From: Escherichia coli | GTDB lineage: Bacteria > Pseudomonadota > Gammaproteobacteria > Enterobacterales > Enterobacteriaceae | Strand: one strand, 5' to 3' | Length of the DNA: 64,000 bases | Assembly: GCF_013122565.1 (NCBI RefSeq) | Contig: NZ_CP053258.1 | Shown: positions 18,431 to 32,421 of the stretch, in pieces | Layout: each line of letters opens with the position of its first letter | How positions within the stretch are numbered: position 1 is the stretch's first letter | Position numbers and translations under genes: made by a program | Notes under the pieces: generated by a model | Databases searched by the model: none | The model's input: only the letters and a program-made list of their open reading frames with translations | Told to the model about the DNA's origin: nothing

Positions 18431-19222
18431 ATGAAATCAAAAAAACCCGTTGCTATTATTACCGGTGCTGCCCGTGGTATCGGTAAAGGTTGTGCTATTG
18501 AACTAGCTCGCGCTGGATTTAATCTTCTAATAAATGATCGACCAGATAAAGACAGCATCGAAAAACTTAAAGCAACTCAAAAACTATGTATCGCTGAAGG
18601 TGTTGAAGTCATAACGTTTCCAGCCAACATTGGCGATTTAACGTTACATGAAAAGATGCTCGACGCGGCGCAAAATCAGTGGGAGCGTTTGGACTGCCTG
18701 CTCAATAACGCCGGAATTTCGGTGAAAAAGCGTGGTGATATTCTCGACCTGGAGCCAGACAGTTTCGACGATAACATTGCCATCAATACCCGCGCACCTT
18801 TCTTCCTCGCCCAGGCTTTCAGCAAGCGCCTGTTGGCGCAACCCAAACCAGAAGCTGAACTACCGCATCGCTCAATTATTTTTGTCAGCTCAATTAACGC
18901 CATCATGCTGGCGATGAATCGAGGTGAGTACACCATTGCCAAAACAGCTGTATCTGCCGCTGCCCGCCTGTTTGCCGCACGTCTTTGTGAAGAGCAAATT
19001 GGCGTTTATGAAATCCGCCCAGGTTTAATCAAAACCGATATGACTATTCCAGCAACAGCTTATTACGACGAACTGATCGCTAAGGGGTTAGTGCCATGGG
19101 GTCGTTGGGGTTTTCCACAGGACATCGCCTCCACTGTCCGTGCAATGGCGGAAGGCAAACTGATTTACACCTGTGGTCAGGCGGTCGCCATCGACGGCGG
19201 CTTAAGTATGCCACGCTTCTGA
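18431..19222 (+). CDS. Short-chain dehydrogenase/reductase (SDR) family oxidoreductase
   Basis: TGAARGIGKG nucleotide-binding motif, NNAG, catalytic Y-x3-K (YTIAK). Confidence 0.88.
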   Translation: MKSKKPVAIITGAARGIGKGCAIELARAGFNLLINDRPDKDSIEKLKATQKLCIAEGVEVITFPANIGDLTLHEKMLDAAQNQWERLDCLLNNAGISVKKRGDILDLEPDSFDDNIAINTRAPFFLAQAFSKRLLAQPKPEAELPHRSIIFVSSINAIMLAMNRGEYTIAKTAVSAAARLFAARLCEEQIGVYEIRPGLIKTDMTIPATAYYDELIAKGLVPWGRWGFPQDIASTVRAMAEGKLIYTCGQAVAIDGGLSMPRF

Positions 19223-19231
19223 GGCTGAACC

Positions 19232-20074
19232 ATGAGAGATCTGTTACATCGCCCGGATTTATTCAGCATCAATACCGCGACGCTGGGCTATAAAATGCCT
19301 CTGCCCGCCCTTATTGATGCTTGTGCCGCACGCGGCATCGGTGCGATTGCCCCCTGGCGCAGAGAGTTGCAGAGCGAAGATCTTCAGCAAATCGTCCGCC
19401 AGCTTGCCGCCAATAACATGAGCGTTTCTGGTTTATGCCGTAGCACCTACTACACCGCGCCGACGCTGGCAGAGCGCAAGCTGGCGATTGATGATAACCG
19501 CCGGGCGCTGGACGACGCAGCGATGCTGAACGCCGCCTGTTATATGCAGGTGGTTGGCGGTCTGCCAACGGGCACTAAAGATCTGTATGAAGCGCGGGAG
19601 CAAGTGAAAGAAGGGGTTCGCCAGTTGCTGTCACATTCGAAAGATGTCGGCGTGCCGATTGCACTGGAGCCACTGCACCCGATGACTGCTGCCGATCGCT
19701 CTTGCCTCTGCTCGCTACGTCAGGCGCTGGACTGGTGTGATGAACTCGATCCCGATGGTGAGTTTGGCCTCGGCGTGGCGGTCGATGTCTACCACGTCTG
19801 GTGGGATCCGGATCTCACCAGTCAGATCCTGCGCGCTGGAAAACGGATCCTCGCGTTTCATGTTTCCGACTGGCTGGTGCCGACGACCGATCTGGTCAAT
19901 GATCGGGGAATGCCGGGAGATGGCGTCATCAATATTCCGTCAATTCGTCGGCTGGTTGAAAACGCCGGATTTAATGGTTCTATCGAATTAGAAATATTTT
20001 CTTCATTCTGGTGGGAAAAGAATATCAACCAAATACTGGATAAAAGTATTAACGGACTTTCTTATTATTGTTAA
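19232..20074 (+). CDS. Sugar phosphate isomerase/epimerase-like TIM-barrel protein (xylose isomerase-like fold)
   Basis: 280 aa; family assignment by overall pattern only; 9 bp after SDR stop. Confidence 0.6.
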   Translation: MRDLLHRPDLFSINTATLGYKMPLPALIDACAARGIGAIAPWRRELQSEDLQQIVRQLAANNMSVSGLCRSTYYTAPTLAERKLAIDDNRRALDDAAMLNAACYMQVVGGLPTGTKDLYEAREQVKEGVRQLLSHSKDVGVPIALEPLHPMTAADRSCLCSLRQALDWCDELDPDGEFGLGVAVDVYHVWWDPDLTSQILRAGKRILAFHVSDWLVPTTDLVNDRGMPGDGVINIPSIRRLVENAGFNGSIELEIFSSFWWEKNINQILDKSINGLSYYC

Positions 20075-20223
20075 ACATCACACTATATTTTTCTCTCGAA
20101 ATTAGTTGATTGTTTAAATTTGCATGTTTTAGAAAGTTATGAGTGAAGTAATAAATCAATAAATTAAATATCTTACAGAGCATTGCGAGTGTTAGGTATT
20201 TATAATCAAATAGGGATTGGCAT

Positions 20224-21765
20224 ATGAGCAAGATTAATACTGCAGAAATACTGGTCGCAGGTATTAAAGATGGCGCAACAATCGCCATTAGCGGTAATGG
20301 CGGTGGAATGGTTGAAGCCGATCATCTACTACAAGCTCTGGAAACACGGTTTCTGGAAACCGGGCATCCATGTAACCTTACGCTTATACACTCATTAGGT
20401 GTAGGAGACCGTGAACACAAAGGCAGTAACCGTTTTGCTCATAAAGGAATGTTAAAGCGTGTTATTGCAGGACATTTCACATGGTCACCAAGAATGCAGG
20501 CTCTGGTTAAGAATAATGAGGTCGAGGCTTATTGCTTTCCTAGCGGAGTTATTCAGACATTATTACGTGAAATAGGCGCTGGACGTCCAGGACTGTTCAC
20601 CCATGTCGGGGTAGGAACTTTTATTGATCCGCGTAATGGAGGAGGGAAATCTAATTCACGAACGACAGAGGATCTGGTAGAGCTAATTGAAATTGATGGA
20701 GAAACAAAGCTACGCTATCGCCCATTTAAAGTTGATTACGCAATTGTGCGCGGTACTTATGCGGATTCACGCGGTAATATTAGCCTGGAAGAAGAAGCCG
20801 TCGATCTGGATTGCAATTCTATAGCTCTAGCTGCCCATAATAGCGGTGGTAAAGTCTTTGTGCAGGTACGTGACATTCTTGAAACAGGTGCGATTGAACC
20901 CAGACGAGTAAAAATACCCGGAATCTTAGTCGATGGCGTCGTGGAATATAGAGATCAACAACAAACATATCTTGGTGGTTACGATCTTACTATCAGCGGC
21001 CAGCATCGTCGTCTTTGTTCTCAAAACTCTATTGAACTGGTTTCAAACCCAATACGTCGATTAATTGCACGCCGTGCAGCACGCGAGTTAGTTGCTGGCG
21101 CATCCACAAACTTTGGCTTTGGCATGCCAGGAGGGATCCCAGGTATTGCTCTGCGTGAAGGAGTCCCTTTTGATACCCTTTGGCTCAGCGTGGAACAAGG
21201 TGTGCATAATGGCATGATGCTGGATGATGCTCTGTTTGGCTGTGCTCGCAATGCTGATGCGATAATTCCTTCTCTTGAGCAGTTTGATTTTTATAGTGGT
21301 GGTGGTGCCGATATAACTTTTCTCGGTATGGGGGAAATGGATCAGTATGGAAACGTGAATGTTTCCCATCTCAACAATAACCTTATCGGACCAGGCGGTT
21401 TTATCGAAATTGCACAGAATGCCCATAAAGTGGTGTTCTGCGGCACGTTTGATGCCAAGGGTAGCAAAATAAACGTCACAAATGCGGGCCTGGAAATCAT
21501 TCAATCCGGCCAGGTAGCAAAACTTGTTTCACAAGTAGAAGAGATAACTTTCAGCGGAGAATATGCGCAACAACGTAAACAGGATGTGTTGTACATTACC
21601 GAGCGCGCTGTATTCCAGTTAACGCCACAGGGTGTGGAACTAATTGAGGTTGCCCCTGGCGTGGACATTGACCACGACATTCTGCCGTATATGGCCTTCC
21701 GTCCAATTATCAAGCACCCACGCCTGATGGAAAGTAGTCTGTTTACGCCGATGGAGGATGCATGA
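20224..21765 (+). CDS. Acyl-CoA:acetate/3-ketoacid CoA-transferase, fused alpha-beta (YdiF-like, family I)
   Basis: 513 aa; clear colinear similarity to E. coli YdiF as recalled (GHFTWSPR, GVGTFIDPRNGGGK, FDFYSGGGADITFLGMGEMDQYGNVNVS, ITERAVF). Confidence 0.85.
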   Translation: MSKINTAEILVAGIKDGATIAISGNGGGMVEADHLLQALETRFLETGHPCNLTLIHSLGVGDREHKGSNRFAHKGMLKRVIAGHFTWSPRMQALVKNNEVEAYCFPSGVIQTLLREIGAGRPGLFTHVGVGTFIDPRNGGGKSNSRTTEDLVELIEIDGETKLRYRPFKVDYAIVRGTYADSRGNISLEEEAVDLDCNSIALAAHNSGGKVFVQVRDILETGAIEPRRVKIPGILVDGVVEYRDQQQTYLGGYDLTISGQHRRLCSQNSIELVSNPIRRLIARRAARELVAGASTNFGFGMPGGIPGIALREGVPFDTLWLSVEQGVHNGMMLDDALFGCARNADAIIPSLEQFDFYSGGGADITFLGMGEMDQYGNVNVSHLNNNLIGPGGFIEIAQNAHKVVFCGTFDAKGSKINVTNAGLEIIQSGQVAKLVSQVEEITFSGEYAQQRKQDVLYITERAVFQLTPQGVELIEVAPGVDIDHDILPYMAFRPIIKHPRLMESSLFTPMEDA

Positions 21766-23834
21766 GTCAGCTTGATGACACCATCCTTGATGCGCTGACA
21801 CACGTCACTTTCCCAAAGGGGTTTGTGTCAGCAGAGCCAACACCAATTGTCACCGTTGAGGATGTTGATTACCCGATCTGGCACGTTGATGCGCTGGTCG
21901 TTGGTAGCGGCGCAGCAGGATTACGTGCGGCAGTTGAACTTAAACGCCGCCAGCAAAATGTGCTGATCGCTACCGCCGGGTTATATATGGGGACGTCGGC
22001 ATGTTCTGGTTCCGATAAACAGACACTGTTTACCGCCGCTACCGCGGGCAACGGCGACAACTTCACCAAACTGGCAGAGGCACTGGCGAGCGGTGGGGCG
22101 ATGGATCACGACACCGCTTATGTCGAAGCGGTAGGTTCTCTGCACACTCTAGGCGGGTTGCAATATCTTGGTCTGGAATTACCGGAAGATCGCTATGGCG
22201 CGATTCTTCGTTATCAAACCGACCATGACGAAGCTGGGCGTGCAACCTCGTGTGGGCCGCGTACCTCAAGGTTAATGGTGAAAGTGCTGTTGGAAGAAGT
22301 ACAGCGCCTCGCCATTCCAGTGTTGACCAGTGCAACAGTGATTAAACTGCTGCATCAGCGTGACGAAAACGGCGAAGACCGCGTGGCAGGGGCAATCCTC
22401 GCGACCGGTCATCGCGCCCATAACCCATGGGGGCTGGCAATTGTGACTGCGCCCAATGTGGTACTGGCAACGGGCGGACCGGGCGAGCTTTATCGCGACA
22501 GTGTTTATCCACATAAATGCTTCGGCTCGCTGGGGCTGGCGCTGGAGGAAGGTCTGACGCTAACCAATCTGACCGAAAGCCAGTTTGGTATAGGCACACC
22601 GCGCAGCACGTTTCCGTGGAATTTGTCCGGCACCTATGTGCAGGTGATCCCGTATATCTATTCCGTGGATGCTGAGGGTAACGAGTATAACTTCCTCGCG
22701 GATTACTATCGCACCACCCAAGAGCTGGCTTCAAACATCTTCCGTAAAGGCTATCAGTGGCCGTTCCACGCCACGCGGGTAATGGATTTTGGCTCCAGCT
22801 TGTTAGATATGGCGGTGGCGCAAGAACAGCAACATGGTCGTCTGGTGTTTATGGATTTCAATCGTAATCCTGAAGCGGTGCCTGGTGATCTACCCTTCTC
22901 ATTAGATCGACTGGACGACGACGTTCGCGCGTATCTGGAAAATAACGACGCTCTGGCACCATCGCCCATCGAACGGCTGCAACGAATGAATCCGCTGTCT
23001 ATCTCGCTGTATAAGATGCACGGTTACGATCTCACCACGCAGCCATTGCAGTTTGCCATGAATAATCAGCACATGAATGGCGGCATTGAAGTGGATATCT
23101 GGGGACAAACATCCCTGCCCGGTTGTTTTGCAGTGGGAGAAGTAGCCGGTACTCACGGCGTTACCCGACCTGGCGGCGCGGCGCTGAATGCCGGACAGGT
23201 TTTTGCCGTGCGTCTGGCGCGCTTTATTGGTTGCACACAAAAGCGGTCTGTTGAGGAGGATGTCGCGCAGCTGGTAGCCTCATCTCTGCATATAGTCAGA
23301 GAAGTTATCGCTCAGGCACTGGCAAACGAGAACGGAATGGCGCTGGTAACGGTGAAAGAAAAAATCCAGGCGCGAATGTCTGATTACGCTGGATTTATTT
23401 GTCATGCCGATAAAGTTCGTCACGCCACCCGTGACGCCCTGCTGTTAAGTGAGTTTGTACAACAACACGGTTTGACCATCAAACATGTTGGCGAAATTGC
23501 CGAACTATTTATGTGGCGGCATATGGCACTGACTTCTGCCGCCATATTGACACAATTGACGCATTATATTGACGCAGGTGGCGGCAGTCGTGGGGCGCGG
23601 ATAATTATTGATCACTATGGGGAAGGTCTACCACAAACTCGACAGGGTGCAAAAGAAAAATGGCGTTTTAGATTGGAGTCTGAAAATGAAAGAGAATCAC
23701 GAGCAACGATTCAGCTTAACAATGGAGAATTTATAATAAATAAAAACAAGATACGTCAAATAATCAATTTCAAAAATAATTATTTTGAAAAAAATTGGCC
23801 GGAGTTTCTCCTTGGAGAAATCTATATAAAATAA
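21762..23834 (+). CDS. FAD-dependent oxidoreductase (fumarate reductase/succinate dehydrogenase flavoprotein-like), with unusual AT-rich C-terminal extension
   Basis: N-terminal dinucleotide-binding motif VVGSGAAGLRAA; 690 aa; ATGA start/stop overlap with upstream CoA-transferase. Confidence 0.8.
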   Translation: MSQLDDTILDALTHVTFPKGFVSAEPTPIVTVEDVDYPIWHVDALVVGSGAAGLRAAVELKRRQQNVLIATAGLYMGTSACSGSDKQTLFTAATAGNGDNFTKLAEALASGGAMDHDTAYVEAVGSLHTLGGLQYLGLELPEDRYGAILRYQTDHDEAGRATSCGPRTSRLMVKVLLEEVQRLAIPVLTSATVIKLLHQRDENGEDRVAGAILATGHRAHNPWGLAIVTAPNVVLATGGPGELYRDSVYPHKCFGSLGLALEEGLTLTNLTESQFGIGTPRSTFPWNLSGTYVQVIPYIYSVDAEGNEYNFLADYYRTTQELASNIFRKGYQWPFHATRVMDFGSSLLDMAVAQEQQHGRLVFMDFNRNPEAVPGDLPFSLDRLDDDVRAYLENNDALAPSPIERLQRMNPLSISLYKMHGYDLTTQPLQFAMNNQHMNGGIEVDIWGQTSLPGCFAVGEVAGTHGVTRPGGAALNAGQVFAVRLARFIGCTQKRSVEEDVAQLVASSLHIVREVIAQALANENGMALVTVKEKIQARMSDYAGFICHADKVRHATRDALLLSEFVQQHGLTIKHVGEIAELFMWRHMALTSAAILTQLTHYIDAGGGSRGARIIIDHYGEGLPQTRQGAKEKWRFRLESENERESRATIQLNNGEFIINKNKIRQIINFKNNYFEKNWPEFLLGEIYIK

Positions 23835-23937
23835 ACGCCTTTTAAATCGGTAGCTATTAAATAAATATTTTATGATTTGCAAAATTCACGCTTTTACATT
23901 GTGAGTATTTTCTATTGATAATATCAAAGGTTTAATC

Positions 23938-25218
23938 ATGAAAAAAATCAAGCACTATAGGTGGCATATTATCGTCTTAATATGTTTCATCACTGTAATT
24001 AATTATTTGGACAGAACAGCATTAGGCGTGGCCGCGCCCACAATAATGCAAACGATGGGGATAACTAAAGAGCAATATTCATGGGTTGTCAGTGCATTCC
24101 AGTTAGCATATACAATTGGACAACCTGTAATGGGATTCTTTATTGACCTTATCGGTCTGAAATTTAGCTTTTTCATTTGCATTATAATCTGGGGACTTGC
24201 CACTATGGGGCACGCATTAGCGGGATCCTGGCAAGGTTTGGCCTTTATGCGTGGCCTGATGGGAGTAAGTGAAGCCTCCGTCTTTCCCGCAGGGATAAAG
24301 ACTGTATCGACGTGGTTTCCTGCTAAAGAACGCGGTATTGCTGCGGGATTCTTCAACACGGGTACATCTCTTGGTGCCATGCTTGCTCCACCGCTTATTG
24401 CCTGGTGCATAATGTTCCATAGTTGGCAATTCGCATTTCTGGTTTCTGGCTGTCTGGCATTATTTGCGGCAGTGATGTGGTTTATCTTTTATAAAGACCC
24501 CAAAGATGCCAAAGGACTTTCTGAAGAGGAAAGACACTATATAGAGTCTGGGCAAGAAAAACATCTTGATTCTAATAAAAGTAAAAAAGCAACCATTCTT
24601 CATGTTATTAAAAAACGCAATTTCTGGGGTATTGGCATTACCCGTTTCCTGGCAGAACCAGCTTGGGGAACAATCAACTTTTGGGTACCTATATTTTTCG
24701 TTGAAACATTGCATTTCAGCTTAAAAGATATAGCAATGTTTATCTGGCTCCCGTTTTTATTAGGTGACTTGGGTTGTTTATCTAGTGGTTTTATCGCTAA
24801 GTTTTTTCACGATCGCGGGGTTAGCCTTCTTAATGCACGAAGAATTACATTTACATTCGCTGCAACAACGATGATGTCGATTGGTTTGGTTAGCATCGTC
24901 ACTAATCCGTACATTGCTGTATTACTAATTAGTATCGGTGCATTCTCACATCAATGCCTATCTACTGTTGTTGCCACTATGGGGGCCGATCTTTTTGAAA
25001 AAGAAGAAGTCGCAACAGTAGTTGGATTATCGGGAGGGTGTGGATATACAGGGCAACTGATATTTAATATATTCATTGGTGTATTCGTTGCTGCAATTGG
25101 CTTCTCGACATTCTTTGTGATACTTGCCTTCCTGGATATTATTGGTGCCATTATTTTATGGTCTGTAATTAGACCACCGAAACTTGTTGAACAAACAAAT
25201 TTAGTAACACAATCGTAG
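23938..25218 (+). CDS. MFS transporter, anion:cation symporter (ACS)-like, probable organic-acid permease
   Basis: 426 aa, 12-TM pattern, N-terminal YLDRTALGVAAP motif. Confidence 0.85.
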   Translation: MKKIKHYRWHIIVLICFITVINYLDRTALGVAAPTIMQTMGITKEQYSWVVSAFQLAYTIGQPVMGFFIDLIGLKFSFFICIIIWGLATMGHALAGSWQGLAFMRGLMGVSEASVFPAGIKTVSTWFPAKERGIAAGFFNTGTSLGAMLAPPLIAWCIMFHSWQFAFLVSGCLALFAAVMWFIFYKDPKDAKGLSEEERHYIESGQEKHLDSNKSKKATILHVIKKRNFWGIGITRFLAEPAWGTINFWVPIFFVETLHFSLKDIAMFIWLPFLLGDLGCLSSGFIAKFFHDRGVSLLNARRITFTFAATTMMSIGLVSIVTNPYIAVLLISIGAFSHQCLSTVVATMGADLFEKEEVATVVGLSGGCGYTGQLIFNIFIGVFVAAIGFSTFFVILAFLDIIGAIILWSVIRPPKLVEQTNLVTQS

Positions 25219-25269
25219 TTTTTATTTTTACCTATAGAATTTTAATCGAAAAAAAATAAAGGAAAGATT

Positions 25270-25749
25270 ATGTCTCAAACAGAAATTATTCTTCCTTCAG
25301 GAAGAGAACTTACTCCAGGTGAATATGGTTATGCCAATCTGGAACCTGGCGATCACTACCAGACTCCCGGTCTTAACGTAACAGAGTCACAGATTGTTGC
25401 TTTTGCGGGGATAAGCGGTGATTTTTTCGATGTTCATATGGATGATGAATTTGCAAGGGAAAAAGGATTTCCAGGACGCATTGCCCACGGTCTGTTAGGT
25501 TTAGCATTGACGGACGGCCTGAAGAATCGTTCTATTGTACGTTTACGTGCAGTTGCTACATTAAACTGGAACTGGTCATTCTGTGCACCATTATTGCCTG
25601 GAGATCATATTCACGCCGTTATTACTGTTGTTAAAAAACGCCCCACCAAACGTGAAGACCGAGGCATTGTGACTTTTGCTTTACAATTGTTTAATCAACA
25701 TGGAAAGATAATACAGCGAGGCGAAACTCTGCTGATGATGATGCAATAA
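25270..25749 (+). CDS. MaoC-like (hot-dog fold) dehydratase / enoyl-CoA hydratase
   Basis: 159 aa; GRIAHGLLGLALTDGL hot-dog motif; AGGAAA RBS. Confidence 0.8.
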   Translation: MSQTEIILPSGRELTPGEYGYANLEPGDHYQTPGLNVTESQIVAFAGISGDFFDVHMDDEFAREKGFPGRIAHGLLGLALTDGLKNRSIVRLRAVATLNWNWSFCAPLLPGDHIHAVITVVKKRPTKREDRGIVTFALQLFNQHGKIIQRGETLLMMMQ

Positions 25750-25760
25750 TCTGAGTTTGA

Positions 25761-25797
25761 AATACGTACCAACGAGTATGCTGGTACGTATTTCTTC
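25761..25797. terminator. Intrinsic terminator between convergent catabolic operon and HipA-like gene
   Basis: 10-bp perfect stem aatacgtacc/ggtacgtatt, 12-nt loop, followed by tttcttc. Confidence 0.65.
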
Positions 25798-25868
25798 GCA
25801 AACGCACTGTTTATGCTCTCTCCCTCATAATGACTGTTTCATCTAACTAATATTTCTAAATAACTGTC

Positions 25869-27137
25869 CTAAATTGACGACCTGAATGCCTCTGCCATTA
25901 ACTCTTGCTCACGATCAGGTAATCTAAGACGCTCGGCAATAGTTTGCCACTGACTGACAATCCCTCTAAAATTAGCAATAATGTCATCAGCTTCCGTCAA
26001 ACTAAGTCGAAAATACTCTGCAACTTCTCTAGCTAATTCCAAATCAAGTGCATTATCATTTTCCGTAATATTAAGCTTTAAACCGTCAGATCTGGAAACA
26101 GGATTCAAATCATATGCTTCAGAAAGCCGCCAACCTTTTCCCGGTATCAAGATATATCCATGATTACGTAAATGATCATCGGTATTAGAAACAAGAATAT
26201 TAAAAACAATTCTGGACCAGAGTTCTTTAAGGTCAGTATTGGTCTGCGCTCCGTGCCTGATAAGAACATCTGCTAATTCCAGATAACTTACACCTGTAGA
26301 GGCATCTTCACCATCCTGATGTCTGGTTAGTGTCATAGCCGAAGCAAAATGCAGACGCCTTCCCGCATTAGTGCGGTCAAAACGACGAACCATAAAACAA
26401 TGGTAATTGCTGGCAAATTTATGCGCCTGAGCAGGTGCAACATTCAGTCCACAGCCAACAGCAAGCGCATTAACGACCATTTCCCATCCACCAACATCAT
26501 ACTCATCTTTTGCACTGGGAAATTTAGCGATGTAAAGATGTCCGGCTTCATCAACCACACTGGCTTTTGGACGTGCACCCCCTAATGATCCCCCCGGAGC
26601 GATTAGCATTCTTAACCATTTTTGCCCCATGAGTTCTTTATTATCAGGATCTTCTTCAATTGCCCGGCTAGCCCTTTCCAGACTCGCTATTTCGGTAAAT
26701 GGTGGGGCTGCAACATTAATGCGGTTATCAAGAAACTCTCCAGCGTCTTCACGTTTGTATCGAAGAGCCCCAACCCGATAAAGATCATGAACACCTAATA
26801 GATAGTCAGACTCATAAAGGTGGGAGTCTTTATCAAATAACCCATCTCGAATATCCCTCTCAAAACGACGCTTCATTAGCATACGCCCCCAACGATCCGG
26901 GCAGGAATCACTAAACGCACCAAATTTATCCTTTGGAGGAATTGGGTACTGTGCTCCCTCATACAACATTATTTCAGGATCTAACTGAATGAAATTAAGT
27001 GCACGATCTGCAAGCGCCTTTTTATCGTACTCAAACTCAAATATCTCACGCGCCCGAGTGCGACGACTGTGTAAATAACCAATACGCGCAGGACCATCCA
27101 GGCCTTCCCAATCCGCATACACTCCGATTAATGCCAT
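25869..27137 (-). CDS. HipA-family serine/threonine kinase (type II toxin-like)
   Basis: 422 aa; P-loop-like GGSLGGARPK and catalytic NTDDHLRNHG motifs in HipA order; AAGGA RBS. Confidence 0.8.
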   Translation of the reverse strand: MALIGVYADWEGLDGPARIGYLHSRRTRAREIFEFEYDKKALADRALNFIQLDPEIMLYEGAQYPIPPKDKFGAFSDSCPDRWGRMLMKRRFERDIRDGLFDKDSHLYESDYLLGVHDLYRVGALRYKREDAGEFLDNRINVAAPPFTEIASLERASRAIEEDPDNKELMGQKWLRMLIAPGGSLGGARPKASVVDEAGHLYIAKFPSAKDEYDVGGWEMVVNALAVGCGLNVAPAQAHKFASNYHCFMVRRFDRTNAGRRLHFASAMTLTRHQDGEDASTGVSYLELADVLIRHGAQTNTDLKELWSRIVFNILVSNTDDHLRNHGYILIPGKGWRLSEAYDLNPVSRSDGLKLNITENDNALDLELAREVAEYFRLSLTEADDIIANFRGIVSQWQTIAERLRLPDREQELMAEAFRSSI

Positions 27138-27150
27138 AATTAATTTCCTT

Positions 27151-27642
27151 TTATCGGTTTTTTATCGGTTTTTTTATCGGTTGTAATAGTGCAGCAAGAG
27201 AGGTTGACGTTTCCCCTGGAATAGTTGGCGTTGAGTCTTTTGCCAGTGCTGTTAAATCCGTGGTGAGATGACCTTCTTTCTCGCGTTTCGTCTGAAATGA
27301 GGCTGTCTGAATCCCTTCTTCATTCTTAACTGATGAACGAGAAAGCCCTCTTTTTTTAATCAAACGGGAATCCTGGAGCTGATGCCCTAAGGCGTCTTCA
27401 GCTGCAAGCTTATTTAAATCCGTTTCCAGGCCCAAAACCTGCATCACAGACAAATATGCCCCTATCGTGACCCCTGCACTTCCTGCCTCCAGAGAACGCA
27501 ATGTGATTGGCGACATCCCTGCACGCTCAGCAACTTGCTTTGCGGTTAGCTTACGTCGTAAACGAGCAAGTTTCAGACGCTCACCAAATTCACTAAGCAT
27601 CTGATTCGTATAAGGGAGTAACGGTGCTGTTTTTTTACCCAT
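27151..27642 (-). CDS. XRE-family HTH protein (HipB-like putative antitoxin) with long low-complexity C-terminal tail
   Basis: 163 aa; HTH ~residues 16-75 ([23 protein letters not shown]); 13 bp upstream of kinase gene on same strand. Confidence 0.75.
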
Positions 27643-27663
27643 AGTGATAATATTTTATCTTTT

Positions 27664-27682
27664 TATGGCTATGATAGCCATA
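27664..27682. promoter_or_regulatory. Palindromic candidate operator upstream of the HTH/kinase operon
   Basis: tatggctat-g-atagccata, 9-bp perfect inverted arms, ~22 bp upstream of HTH start codon. Confidence 0.55.
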
Positions 27683-28000
27683 ATATTAGCATTTATTAGA
27701 TTGAACGCACCTGCAAAGCGTTCAGAATTATGGAAGAGATAATATCTTATCTTTTTATATATAAAAACAATAAAATAACAGCACATTAATATATAACTTA
27801 TTGTTTTTATTATCTTACAAGGGAGACACTCGCTGTATTGATGCTTTTGTCGTGTTTTATGTGTAAAAAACATGACACGAACTACCAGCGGCGAGACTGG
27901 GGGCTGGGGGCCTGGTATGGGTACTGCGAACTTTTTATAAAAGGAATAGCAAGAGATTTATGGAGGGAACGTCTATTTCTGCGGTTTTTATCACTTAAAA

Positions 28001-28030
28001 GCAAAACGCCGACCAATGGTCGGCGTTTTT
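28001..28030. terminator. Intrinsic terminator downstream of rplI (rpsF operon)
   Basis: Stem aacgccgacc/ggtcggcgtt with 4-nt loop, flanked by A-run and T-run (bidirectional capable). Confidence 0.8.
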
Positions 28031-28050
28031 ACGTCTCGTTGAATAACGAA

Positions 28051-28512
<462 letters not shown>

Positions 28513-28541
28513 TCAAAGTCGTATTAATGGACCGTGACCGA

Positions 28542-29088
<547 letters not shown>

Positions 29089-29094
29089 CAGAAA

Positions 29095-29508
<414 letters not shown>

Positions 29509-29816
29509 TTATTCAGCCTCCTGTCTGGGTCAGCCGAATCCCGGGGAGGCAAGGAACGTGTTAAAGGTCGGCTGAAAAATGACGCGTTATAGTACTGACA
29601 TACCCCGCTAAACTCAAGGGCAGAGCCGAAATAAATCTCCCCTTTCGCAAATAACCTCTAAACCGCTGATTTGGAGTTCATCACACTTCATCATGGTGTT
29701 TTTTCGAACAACTGCATCAGAAATGGTCACCATCAACTTCTTTATCATTGATTAAAATTAAATCAGAAGATCATCACAGAGGAGAGCACACAAAGTCAGC
29801 CGTCGAGGAGGTATCT

Positions 29817-30092
29817 ATGTTCAGTCGAGTTTTAGCCCTTCTGGCTGTGCTTTTGCTAAGTGCAAATACATGGGCAGCCATTGAAATTAATAACCACCAG
29901 GCTAGAAATATGGACGATGTGCAAAGCTTAGGCGTGATTTATATCAATCATAATTTCGCCACTGAAAGTGAAGCACGTCAGGCATTAAATGAAGAAACAG
30001 ATGCGCAGGGCGCAACGTACTACCACGTAATTCTGATGCGGGAACCGGGGAGTAACGGCAATATGCACGCCAGCGCGGATATTTATCGCTAG
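29817..30092 (+). CDS. yjfY: DUF1471-family periplasmic small protein YjfY
   Basis: 91 aa from MFSRVLALLAVLLLSANTWA signal peptide; GAGGAGG RBS. Confidence 0.85.
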   Translation: MFSRVLALLAVLLLSANTWAAIEINNHQARNMDDVQSLGVIYINHNFATESEARQALNEETDAQGATYYHVILMREPGSNGNMHASADIYR

Positions 30093-30132
30093 CACCAGGT
30101 ATAACCAACGAAACATTGCCATAGTTTGCTTT

Positions 30133-30157
30133 GCCCCCTTCGCAGGGGGCTTTTTTT
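30133..30157 (+). terminator. Intrinsic terminator after yjfY
   Basis: gcccccttcgcagggggc hairpin followed by ttttttt. Confidence 0.85.
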
Positions 30158-30220
30158 GAAAAACGGCTGCGGAATTAGACCAGTTATCTCCCGAGGAAGG
30201 AAATTTCCGCAGCGCGTGTT

Positions 30221-30907
30221 TTACTTCTGCCCGTAATAAGCGTTAGGACCGTGTTTACGCATGAAGTGTTTATTCATCAGGAAGCTGTCGATGTGATTGA
30301 GTTGTGGGTTAATACTGCGCGCAATCCACGCCATTTTCGCCACTTCTTCCATCACCACCGCGTTATGCACCGCATCGTGGGCATCTTTCCCCCAGGCGAA
30401 CGGTCCGTGCTGATACACCACAATTCCCGGCGTATGCAGCGGCTCGGCGTTGCCCAGCGTTTCGATAATCACTTTGCCAGTGTTCAGTTCATACTCGCCC
30501 TGCACCTCTTCTTCGCTTAACCCGCGCGTACACGGGATGTCGCCAAAGAAGTAGTCGGCGTGCGTGGTGCCTAACGCCGGGATCGCCAGCCCCGCCTGCG
30601 CCCATGCGGTGGCATGAGTGGAGTGGGTATGGACAATGCCGCCAAGCGACGAGTAACGACGGTAGAGTTCAAGATGCGTTGCGATGTCGGAAGACGGACG
30701 ATATTCCCCTTCCACTACCTTGCCGCTCATATCAACTACCACCATATCGTCTGCTTTCATGGTTTCATAGGCGACACCGCTGGGCTTGATCACCACCAGC
30801 CCGCGTTCGCGGTCAATGGCACTAACGTTACCCCAGGTAAAGGTCACCAGCCCATAGCGCGGCAGATCCATGTTGGCTTCAAACACCTGCTGTTTCAGGT
30901 TTTGCAT
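30221..30907 (-). CDS. ulaF: L-ribulose-5-phosphate 4-epimerase UlaF
   Basis: 228 aa class II aldolase/adducin family; last gene of ula operon; 1-nt overlap with ulaE. Confidence 0.92.
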
Positions 30908-31761
30908 TATGCCGCCTCCACCATGCCTGCTTTAACCATGCGCGCTTTCACCCAATCGCGCGCTTTCGCCACTTCTGCCGCCGGGTCTTCCGCCGTTTCG
31001 CTCCACATCTCAATCAGGTACGGCCCGCAATAGCCACTCTGTTTGAGCGTTTCGAAGCAACGTTCGAAATCCACTACGCCTTCACCAAACGGCACGTTTT
31101 TAAAGACGCCCGGTTTAGTGTCTTTCACATGCACCGCAACGATATGCCCGATTCCGGCCTGCAATTCCATCTGCACGTCGTTATCCCACGCCGACAGGTT
31201 GCCAATGTCCGGATAAAGCTGGAACCACGGATTGTTGAGATAGTGCGCGTAGCCCAGCGCCTTGCTGATGGAGTTCATCAACGGGTAATCCATGATCTCC
31301 ATCGCCAGCGTCACCTGCGCGCGGCTTGCCATCTCAACGCTCTCTTTCAGCCCGTCACGGAAACGACGACGCGTTTCGTTATTGGCTTCCTGATAGTAAA
31401 CGTCATAACCCGCCAGTTGGATCACGCGAATGCCGACATCCTGGGCGAACTGGATAGCTTTACGCATAATCTCCAGCCCCTGCGCCCGCACTGCGTCATC
31501 TTCGCTGCCCAGCGGGAAACGACGATGGGCAGAAAGGCACATGGACGGCACACGCACGCCGGTTTCAACAATCGCGTTGACCAGCGCCAGACGCTGCTCG
31601 CGACTCCAGTCGAGGCGCGAAAGGCGCTCGTCCGTTTCATCTACCGACATCTCGACAAAATCGAAACCTAACGTTTTTGCCAGTTGCAGCCGTTCCAGCC
31701 AGCACTCCCCGGCGGGGAGCGCTTTTTCATAGATACCAAGCGGGATTTGTTTGGACAACAT
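30907..31761 (-). CDS. ulaE: L-ribulose-5-phosphate 3-epimerase UlaE
   Basis: 284 aa xylose isomerase-like TIM barrel; operon position. Confidence 0.92.
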
Positions 31762-31770
31762 ATCCGCTCC

Positions 31771-32421
31771 TTAGCCCCACAGTTCGGCGATGGAACGTTT
31801 GAACTGACGTGCGGCTTCCACCGGAGAAGCGGCATCACGGATACTACGGCCCGCGATAAAGACGTGAATCGGAATGCCTTTGAACAGCGGCAGATCTTCC
31901 AGCGCCAGGCCACCAGTGACGGTTACTTTGAAGCCCATATCGGAAAGACGTTTGATCGCGGTAATGTCCGCTTCGCCCCACGCTACGCCTGCGGCCTGTG
32001 CGTCACGGCTGCGGTGATAAACCACCTGCTGAATGCCTGCGTCGCGCCACTGTTGCGCCTGTTCCCAGGTCCAGTAACCGGTCAGTTCGATCTGCACGTC
32101 GCCGTTAAACTCTTTTGCCACGTCCAGAGCGCCTTTGGCGGTGTTGATATCCGCACAGCAAATTACCGTCACCCAGTCAGCGTTGGCTTCGAAGCACATA
32201 CGAGAGAGGATTTTGCCCGCATCGGCAATTTTGGCATCTGCCAGCACGATTTTGTGCGGGTAAAGCGCTTTCAGGTCACGAACCGCACGCACGCCTTCGC
32301 CCACACACAGAATGGTGCCCACTTCGATAATGTCGACTTCTTCGGCAATCAGGCGAGTGGTTTCGTAGGCGCTGTCCATAGTCTGGTTGTCCAGCGCGAC
32401 TTGCAACATGGGTAATGACAT
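31771..32421 (-). CDS. ulaD: 3-keto-L-gulonate-6-phosphate decarboxylase UlaD
   Basis: 216 aa from [36 protein letters not shown]; AAGGA RBS. Confidence 0.92.

Follow-up and report, generated by a model that had tools for sequence, protein, structure and literature searches.

A HipBA-class gene pair in Escherichia coli: a probable two-gene toxin-antitoxin cassette whose antitoxin ends in a conserved C-terminal motif

Introduction

The textbook example of a connection between toxin-antitoxin systems and antibiotic persistence is provided by HipA kinases. Here we consider a gene pair of related type in a 64,000-nucleotide stretch of Escherichia coli DNA (NCBI RefSeq assembly GCF_013122565.1, contig NZ_CP053258.1), the whole of which we refer to as the window: a gene for a helix-turn-helix (HTH) protein of the XRE type, called hipB below, followed by a gene for a HipA-family kinase. 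Our reading, to which we attach a probability of roughly three in four and which draws on analogy with HipA and HipT, is that the two form a self-contained type II toxin-antitoxin cassette of the HipBA class, with autoregulation.

The classical point of comparison is the HipBA system of K-12 and Shewanella oneidensis, where, as in the window, an HTH gene precedes the kinase gene; palindromic operators lie upstream there, and operator-like palindromes in the window. The window kinase shares with K-12 HipA a Gly-rich loop, a catalytic loop, the Mg-binding Asp and, in its predicted structure, the full-length HipA fold (template-modelling score, TM, 0.70), but the two are only ~18% identical and the Pfam family Couple_hipA, which covers the HipA N-terminus, is not significant in the window protein. 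The antitoxins differ as well: the short tail of K-12 HipB stops at Trp88, whereas window HipB combines a conserved N-terminal extension with a C-terminal motif carried on a linker of ~45 residues that is predicted to be disordered. HipBST systems (E. coli O127, Legionella) share the HipA_C core, and their HipT chains are the best sequence-level matches of the window kinase in the Protein Data Bank (PDB); the HipBST architecture was nevertheless set aside, the cassette having only two genes, no HipS gene and a full-length kinase with an N-terminal subdomain of its own. YjjJ/HipH also has the HipA_C core and is the sole NCBIfam match of the kinase; it too was rejected, on a separate rather than fused HTH open reading frame (ORF) and a score of 44.3 bits against a cut-off of 401 (NF007297).

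Gerdes et al. (2021) give an operational definition of hipBA: a gene for a kinase homologous to HipA, located downstream of an HTH gene (PMC8262856). By that definition the pair is a hipBA module, and belongs to a clade without an experimentally analysed member; in the accessible part of Table S1 of the same paper, the motifs GGARPK and DDHLRNH find no match among the clade I sequences. A HipA_C core, aligned catalytic residues and an upstream, co-oriented HTH gene conserved as a pair with the kinase gene are all present, while the fused N-terminal subdomain is recognisable at the level of fold only, by comparison of the predicted structure with full-length HipA.

The closest described locus is that of NRG857c, an adherent-invasive E. 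coli strain, which was catalogued in 2020 as the putative system 'hipA-2/xre-3 (TA28)' in a survey of toxin-antitoxin loci (PMC7232551). That study, which consists of sequence cataloguing and transcript levels, puts the locus between a cluster for fatty-acid metabolism on one side and the rps genes on the other, reports it missing from K-12 and pseudogenised in CFT073, and finds that bile salts raise the hipA-2 transcript 8-32-fold; the antitoxin is annotated there as 97 amino acids (aa) with no recognised domain. Coordinates and gene lengths (163 and 422 aa) taken from the RefSeq entry for NRG857c agree with an orthologous locus, situated between rplI and a fatty-acid/major facilitator superfamily (MFS) cluster. 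Position and gene lengths are the extent of our comparison with NRG857c, and the identities given below (~95% nucleotide, 96-97% protein) are those of the copy in E. coli ST80. Relative to hipA-2/xre-3, the window copy has an extra 11-bp repeat, a 13-bp rather than a 2-bp gap between the genes, and GN changed to NR at the end of HipB. RefSeq annotates the two genes of the module in E. coli genomes as 'type II toxin-antitoxin system HipA family toxin' and 'helix-turn-helix domain-containing protein'; given this annotation and the listing of hipA-2/xre-3, the pair is not a fresh discovery. A literature search by protein accession returned no match.

Results

Kinase family, catalytic residues and fold

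The original prediction, made from the letters of the window, described a 163-aa XRE-HTH protein and a 422-aa kinase on one strand and 13 bp apart. Both ORFs were confirmed, on the minus strand with hipB upstream and a gap of 13 bp (27138-27150):

27151..27642, minus strand: hipB-like antitoxin/repressor gene, 163 aa (ORF; Pfam HTH_31/HTH_3; 96% identity to the annotated E. coli orthologue)
25869..27137, minus strand: gene for the HipA-family Ser/Thr kinase, 422 aa, the putative toxin (ORF; Pfam HipA_C)
26565..26594, minus strand: Gly-rich (ATP-binding) loop GGSLGGARPK, codons 182-191 (hhalign and column counts)
26157..26186, minus strand: catalytic loop NTDDHLRNHG, codons 318-327 (D320, H322 and N325 align with D309, H311 and N314 of HipA)
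26109..26111, minus strand: D343, counterpart of the Mg2+-binding Asp D332 of HipA (hhalign; Asp in 56 of 58 relatives)

Evidence for the family assignment came firstly from Pfam: HipA_C (PF07804) matches residues 184-397 with an E value of 1.4e-46 and over positions 2-213 of the 213 in the model. It came secondly from an alignment of 58 kinase relatives (33-96% identity), the profile of which hhalign aligns with K-12 HipA at a probability of 97.4% (columns 16-353 against 8-347). The residues paired are S184 with S150 – the HipA autophosphorylation site – K205 with K181, D320 with D309, N325 with N314 and D343 with D332, in segments that read, kinase against HipA, SLGGARPK/SVAGAQEK, IAKFP/IIKLP, NTDDHLRN/ATDGHAKN and AYD/FYD. 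Across the family K191, K205, D211, R252-F-D-R255 and N325 are invariant, G187, R189 and P190 are likewise found in 58 of 58, and S184 (52/58), D320 (53/58), H322 (56/58) and D343 (56/58) are nearly so. The P-loop-like GGSLGGARPK and the catalytic NTDDHLRNHG that had been proposed by eye were thus borne out at residues 182-191 and 318-327, and proper alignment leaves no catalytic residue missing.

The distance to characterised kinases is nonetheless considerable. With the single kinase sequence as query, phmmer recovered HipT chains from the PDB (E ~1e-8) and did not find E. coli HipA; the 58-sequence profile recovered Legionella and E. coli HipT, followed by E. coli and Shewanella HipA (E ~1e-10) and then CtkA, these matches covering the core only (positions ~216-404). 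The N-terminus had been thought not to resemble that of E. coli HipA. At the level of Pfam this view stands (Couple_hipA, E 0.44), although hhalign carries the alignment with HipA back to residue 16. At the level of predicted fold it does not stand: an AlphaFold2 (AF2) model of the kinase, with a mean predicted local distance difference test score (pLDDT) of 94 and a predicted TM score of 0.93, finds as its best Foldseek match full-length E. coli HipA (TM 0.69-0.70 over ~465 columns, 18% identity), followed by Shewanella HipA (full-length HipA structures range from TM 0.64 to 0.70) and then by HipT, over the core only. Since the match extends over the whole of HipA, the N-terminal domain appears to be HipA-like in fold and simply unrecognised by Pfam. 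Judged from alignment and modelled structure together, the kinase is a full-length HipA-type enzyme, though a distant one.

One variant in the Gly-rich loop may be recorded here. At codon 188 the NRG857c kinase reads LGGTRPK (A188T); most relatives have Ala at this position, and Thr occurs in 3 of the 58 family members.

Pairing, distribution and mobility

Whether the HTH gene belongs with the kinase gene was examined in 80 loci from representative genomes, encoding kinases 46-80% identical to that of the window, by running a profile of the HTH protein against the ORFs on the upstream side. In every one of the 79 loci for which upstream sequence exists, the gene immediately preceding the kinase gene, on the same strand, encodes a HipB homologue (hmmsearch E 1e-15 to 1e-78). 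These loci span Proteobacteria, Bacteroidota, Lentisphaerae and Ignavibacteriae, and in most of them hipB and the kinase gene are separated by -4 to +39 bp. Co-conservation of the two genes, named in the original prediction as something to check, is therefore strict. Clustering of all flanking ORFs in the 80 loci revealed no third conserved gene: real neighbours are common to at most ~7 loci. Some further gene 'families' that at first resembled partners were discarded as shadow ORFs lying antisense to hipB or to the kinase gene. Strict pairing, combined with the lack of a third conserved gene, points to an autonomous two-gene cassette.

The family is large. A scan of cluster representatives (50%-identity clusters) gave 744 matches to the kinase at E<1e-30 and 6964 at E<1e-3, many of them aligning end to end at 35-56% identity. 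Kinases 72-83% identical to ours occur in Enterobacter, Salmonella, Yersinia, Serratia, Pectobacterium, Pseudomonas, Stenotrophomonas, Burkholderia, Achromobacter and Alcaligenes. The family extends to plasmids, with a homologue at E<1e-30 in 228 records, among them plasmids of Azotobacter (76% identity), megaplasmids of Pantoea (~72%) and small plasmids of Chondrinema and Selenomonas. Mobility of this kind is typical of toxin-antitoxin cassettes. Within E. coli, megablast locates the module in 1046 of 5426 complete genomes, at the chromosomal site that it has in the window (~95% nucleotide identity).

The same patchy, horizontally mobile distribution, together with the setting of the pair in an AT-rich accessory island, could also be expected of an anti-phage module working by abortive infection, in which the HTH protein would hold the kinase inactive until phage infection freed it to shut down translation. 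Such a role would be compatible with a toxin-antitoxin pair, and toxin-antitoxin systems in general are increasingly tied to phage defence (introduction of PMC8262856). We nevertheless regard it as unlikely. Against PADLOC-DB 2.0 the best match of the kinase is PDC-M03A, at a non-significant E of 0.0049 (14 bits over 40 residues), and the HTH protein gives generic matches only; no recurrent defence-type gene family lies beside the module in the 80 loci; only 5 weak matches to the kinase occur among 50,697 phage records; and in E. coli the module keeps to one fixed chromosomal site, beside metabolic genes. Of the two possibilities raised in the original prediction, the toxin-antitoxin module is the one that gains from these data, through its catalytic residues and invariable pairing, while the PADLOC comparison lends abortive infection no support.

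Architecture of the HTH protein

Alignment of the HTH proteins divides window HipB into a core, a linker and a terminal motif, the last of which runs into a short tandem repeat in the DNA:

27358..27642, minus strand: conserved core, codons 1-95, comprising N-terminal extension, HTH and LGRQLQDSRL helix (in all family members)
27223..27357, minus strand: variable linker, codons 96-140, rich in S/T/K/E/R, predicted disordered (sequence and length not conserved across the clade)
27169..27222, minus strand: conserved C-terminal motif, codons 141-158, T-x-G-x-T-S-x-x-L-A-x-L-L-K-P-x-K-K (alignment of long HipBs)
27149..27180, minus strand: tandem repeat CCGATAAAAAA(A), present ~2.6 times where hipB ends and encoding PIKKPIK (DNA aligned with that of E. 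coli ST80)

Pfam places HTH_31 (E 9.6e-11) and HTH_3 (7e-07) at residues 18-75, and a strongly conserved helix, LAAEDxLGRQLQDSRL, closes the core at about residue 95. Among 20 long HipBs, L149, L152 and L153 of the C-terminal motif are invariant and T145, K154 and P155 nearly so. Linker and motif are confined to a beta/gamma-proteobacterial branch in which the kinases are at least ~59% identical and HipB measures 144-227 aa; in Bacteroidota, Lentisphaerae and other relatives HipB has ~95-125 aa and ends soon after the LQD helix. In these distant relatives the core does without a tail, which would be an add-on to it. The length that first drew attention to the protein, about twice that of classical HipB, is thus real in relation to K-12 HipB (88 aa) and normal within its clade. 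Its tail, put originally at ~80 residues, amounts to ~68 (96-163) beyond the core; the richness in S, T, K and E ascribed to it is confirmed for the linker, R being frequent as well. As for the PIK repeat seen at its end, the protein does read QPIKKPIK, which an 11/12-bp tandem repeat in the DNA encodes.

The relationship to classical HipB is another matter. When the HTH protein was compared with it by hhalign the probability was 59%, over the HTH only. By contrast, PDB entry 9u9g ('XRE family transcriptional regulator, HipB', 153 aa, from Pseudomonas) is matched at E 1.9e-29 with the single sequence and at 1.4e-42 with the profile, the alignment spanning residues 1-98 of the window protein. 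Over the 131 residues searched, the 9u9g protein shares 99% identity with a Pseudomonas protein that has …TSSELAKKLLGDDDA at its C-terminus; this homologue has the architecture of window HipB, with the same C-terminal motif in the form TSSELAKKLL, and its gene is followed downstream by one for a 418-aa HipA_C kinase 59% identical to ours. The 9u9g HipB differs in coming from another genus, in having a shorter linker and in being represented by the HipB chain only; no kinase structure from this clade was found in the PDB, and literature searches found no publication tied to the entry. The existence of 9u9g indicates that a member of the family is already under structural study.

How such a tail might relate to the kinase was explored with an AF2 model in which HipB and kinase are fused into a single chain through a (GGGGS)4 linker, using an alignment of 27 natural pairs. 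The HTH (residues 11-78) is predicted at pLDDT 72-89, residues 79-140 fall below 50 (natural linker 33-45), and the C-terminal motif recovers to 86 (residues 141-150) and 73 (151-160) as a short strand and helix. The peak of 86 is flanked by segments below 35, the artificial linker being below 30. Compared with the model of the kinase by itself, confidence drops most in the block containing the Gly-rich loop (58, from >90) and in that containing the catalytic loop (63, from 98). This pattern is what would be expected if the motif were placed against the kinase, perhaps near its active site; we offer this as a hypothesis, the alignment being shallower than that behind the model of the kinase by itself.

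A different interpretation of the whole locus is that in this genome the module is a decaying, inert remnant. Pseudogenised copies are reported from CFT073 (PMC7232551), and some other E. coli assemblies have frameshifts in hipB, or in both hipB and the kinase gene. In RS218 a deletion of one G, for which sequencing error is a possible cause, leaves a tail-less, 129-aa HipB beside a kinase that is intact (R18W only); in a Logan short-read assembly an A7-to-A6 frameshift in hipB is accompanied by a second one in the kinase gene. The window itself carries an 11-bp duplication: relative to E. coli ST80 it has one more copy of the tandem repeat. The stop codon is displaced as a result, HipB ends in NR where that of ST80 ends in GN, and the two genes stand 13 bp apart instead of 2. 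However, these two residues are all that the duplication alters, and the AAGGA Shine-Dalgarno sequence and start codon of the kinase gene are retained. Neither ORF is interrupted or shortened, every catalytic residue and every conserved HipB position is kept, and identity to the ST80 proteins is 96% for the HTH protein and 97% for the kinase, with substitutions evenly spread. That the window holds a dead copy we therefore consider hardly credible. One 40-nt allele-specific megablast query retrieved 545 E. coli genomes, all with an intact hipB frame, a result that gives no allele frequency.

A feature of the DNA deserves separate mention: a slippage-prone A7+GGG tract at 27346-27357 (hipB codons 96-99) sits exactly at the junction of core and tail, and is a frameshift hotspot. 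It is in this tract that both the RS218 deletion and the A7-to-A6 frameshift of the short-read assembly fall.

The region upstream of hipB

Four elements were delineated upstream of the hipB start codon:

27646..27659, minus strand: O1, also box B, the operator-like palindrome GATAAAATATTATC, which stops 3 nt short of the start codon (ATG) of hipB
27677..27691, minus strand: box A, TGCTAATATTATGGC, extended -10-like (TGnTAATAT; hexamer at 27683-27688) and at the same time an imperfect operator palindrome
27738..27751, minus strand: O3, second perfect copy of the operator palindrome, GATAAGATATTATC, in a 24-nt direct repeat of the O1 region, 92 nt upstream
27663..27683, minus strand: perfect palindrome TTATGGCTATCATAGCCATAA, 21 nt with 10-nt arms, overlapping box A and identical in E. 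coli ST80

The pattern GATAA-N4-TTATC occurs twice in the window, against an expectation of 0.05, and both occurrences are upstream of hipB; the classical hipBA operator consensus is instead TATCC-N8-GGATA. Box A lies between O1 and O3, its centre 31 bp from that of O1. Boxes A and B recur, with position and sequence preserved, in the 100 nt that precede hipB in loci of Serratia, Pluralibacter, Burkholderia, Pseudomonas and others, box A at about -50 to -36 (for example GTGCTAATATT and GTGCTATTATT) and box B at about -18 to -3 (…AATATTAGCAC). The 21-nt palindrome, in contrast, is specific to Escherichia among the genera examined. From the conservation of box A across genera we infer that it is a putative promoter element of the extended -10 kind. 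The arrangement of the boxes would suit autorepression, with a dimer of the HTH protein at two sites about three helical turns apart occluding both the -10 element and the ribosome-binding region.

Genomic setting

The pair lies directly downstream of the rpsF-priB-rpsR-rplI operon and its terminator, and converges on plus-strand catabolic/MFS genes (18431-25749). From 23 to 28 kb of the window the GC content is 40-43%, against ~50-55% in the flanks, in agreement with the original description of the pair as sitting at the edge of an AT-rich island and convergent with a catabolic operon. One further feature marks its limit:

28003..28029, minus strand: intrinsic terminator of rplI, a GC-rich hairpin of 12-13 bp followed by a T run

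This terminator is the upstream boundary of the hipBA transcription unit.

Proximity to the catabolic genes raises the prospect of a non-toxic signalling pair, whose HTH protein would regulate the adjoining catabolic/MFS operon, with modulation by the kinase. In Escherichia the module always adjoins the same fatty-acid/CoA-transferase/MFS cluster (PMC7232551 for the reported locus), and the Ser/Thr-rich conserved motif at the C-terminus of HipB could serve as a phosphorylation site. Other genera, however, keep the pair in unrelated contexts and on plasmids, with no conserved neighbour; in the 64 kb the operator-like palindromes stand only upstream of the pair itself; and the catabolic cluster has a TetR-family regulator of its own. 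We judge a signalling pair to be very unlikely.

Some observations concern the surroundings. A 159-aa ORF at 25270-25749 (plus strand), between the MFS gene and the kinase gene, has no counterpart in E. coli ST80, where similarity to the window begins at ~25849 and the MFS-kinase gap is 143 bp. ST80 has an enoyl-CoA hydratase gene between the isomerase and CoA-transferase genes; the window appears to be without it, the flanking ORFs being ~150 bp apart (20074-20224). An Rfam RpsF leader at 29488-29572 (minus strand; 110 bits, E 1.4e-25), upstream of rpsF, is an ordinary ribosomal-protein autoregulatory element. Against the 5426 complete E. coli genomes, the best identity is only 98.0% over the conserved rplI-rpsF-ulaE core (window 28000-32000) and ~95% over the hipBA module (25700-27900), from which it follows that the window may derive from a divergent Escherichia lineage and not from a typical E. 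coli.

Discussion

The data assembled here favour a type II toxin-antitoxin cassette, and its working can be sketched by analogy. The free kinase would arrest growth, as HipA and HipT do, probably by phosphorylating an aminoacyl-tRNA synthetase. The HTH protein, as a dimer, would bind and neutralise it and would also act as the repressor of its own promoter at a pair of 14-bp palindromes, one over the extended -10 and one over the ribosome-binding region. In the proteobacterial branch a disordered linker, with a short conserved motif at its C-terminal end, would have been added to the antitoxin; the motif may fold onto the kinase, where it would make one more tethered contact or be inhibitory, or it may serve as a protease degron.

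Several observations weigh against this account. On the side of the kinase, mechanistic transfer from HipA rests on ~18% identity, E. coli HipA having escaped the single-sequence search. On the side of the antitoxin, by sequence, window HipB is unrelated to classical HipB beyond a generic HTH: it scores 18.4 bits against a cut-off of 79 for the NCBIfam HipB family (NF007271), of which it is not a member, and a search of the PDB with the HTH family profile missed the E. coli and Shewanella HipB chains. The docking of the tail rests on the pLDDT of a single-chain fusion and a shallow alignment of 27 pairs; distant relatives manage with HipBs of ~100 aa that have no tail, and the tail-less hipB of RS218, next to an intact kinase gene, suggests that the tail may be non-essential. 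A strict -35/-10 (sigma-70) scan found no minus-strand promoter upstream of hipB. Finally, the searchable literature contains no experiment on toxicity, kinase activity or neutralisation for any member of the clade.

In the proteobacterial branch HipB may neutralise its kinase in a manner that has not been described for classical HipB, with the TSxxLAxLL-KPxKK motif, tethered through the linker to a DNA-bound HTH dimer, docking on the kinase, possibly at or near the active-site cleft, as an inhibitory element, pseudosubstrate or protease-sensitive switch, and the HTH core serving mainly in DNA binding. We advance this tentatively, as a possibility we would sooner doubt than assume; the high pLDDT of the motif and the local loss of confidence at the Gly-rich and catalytic loops in the fusion model are compatible with it.

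For genome annotation the pair itself is routine, having been annotated and listed before, and its sole distinctive point, the tethered conserved motif of the antitoxin, is a feature of the clade as a whole. About one in five complete E. coli genomes, pathogenic B2 strains included, carry this second HipA-type kinase, as do many strains of Pseudomonas, Burkholderia, Serratia and Stenotrophomonas, and our literature searches found no published target or neutralisation mechanism for the clade. An antitoxin in two parts, an HTH core and a tethered motif, would offer a simple handle on how HipB-type antitoxins control their kinases.

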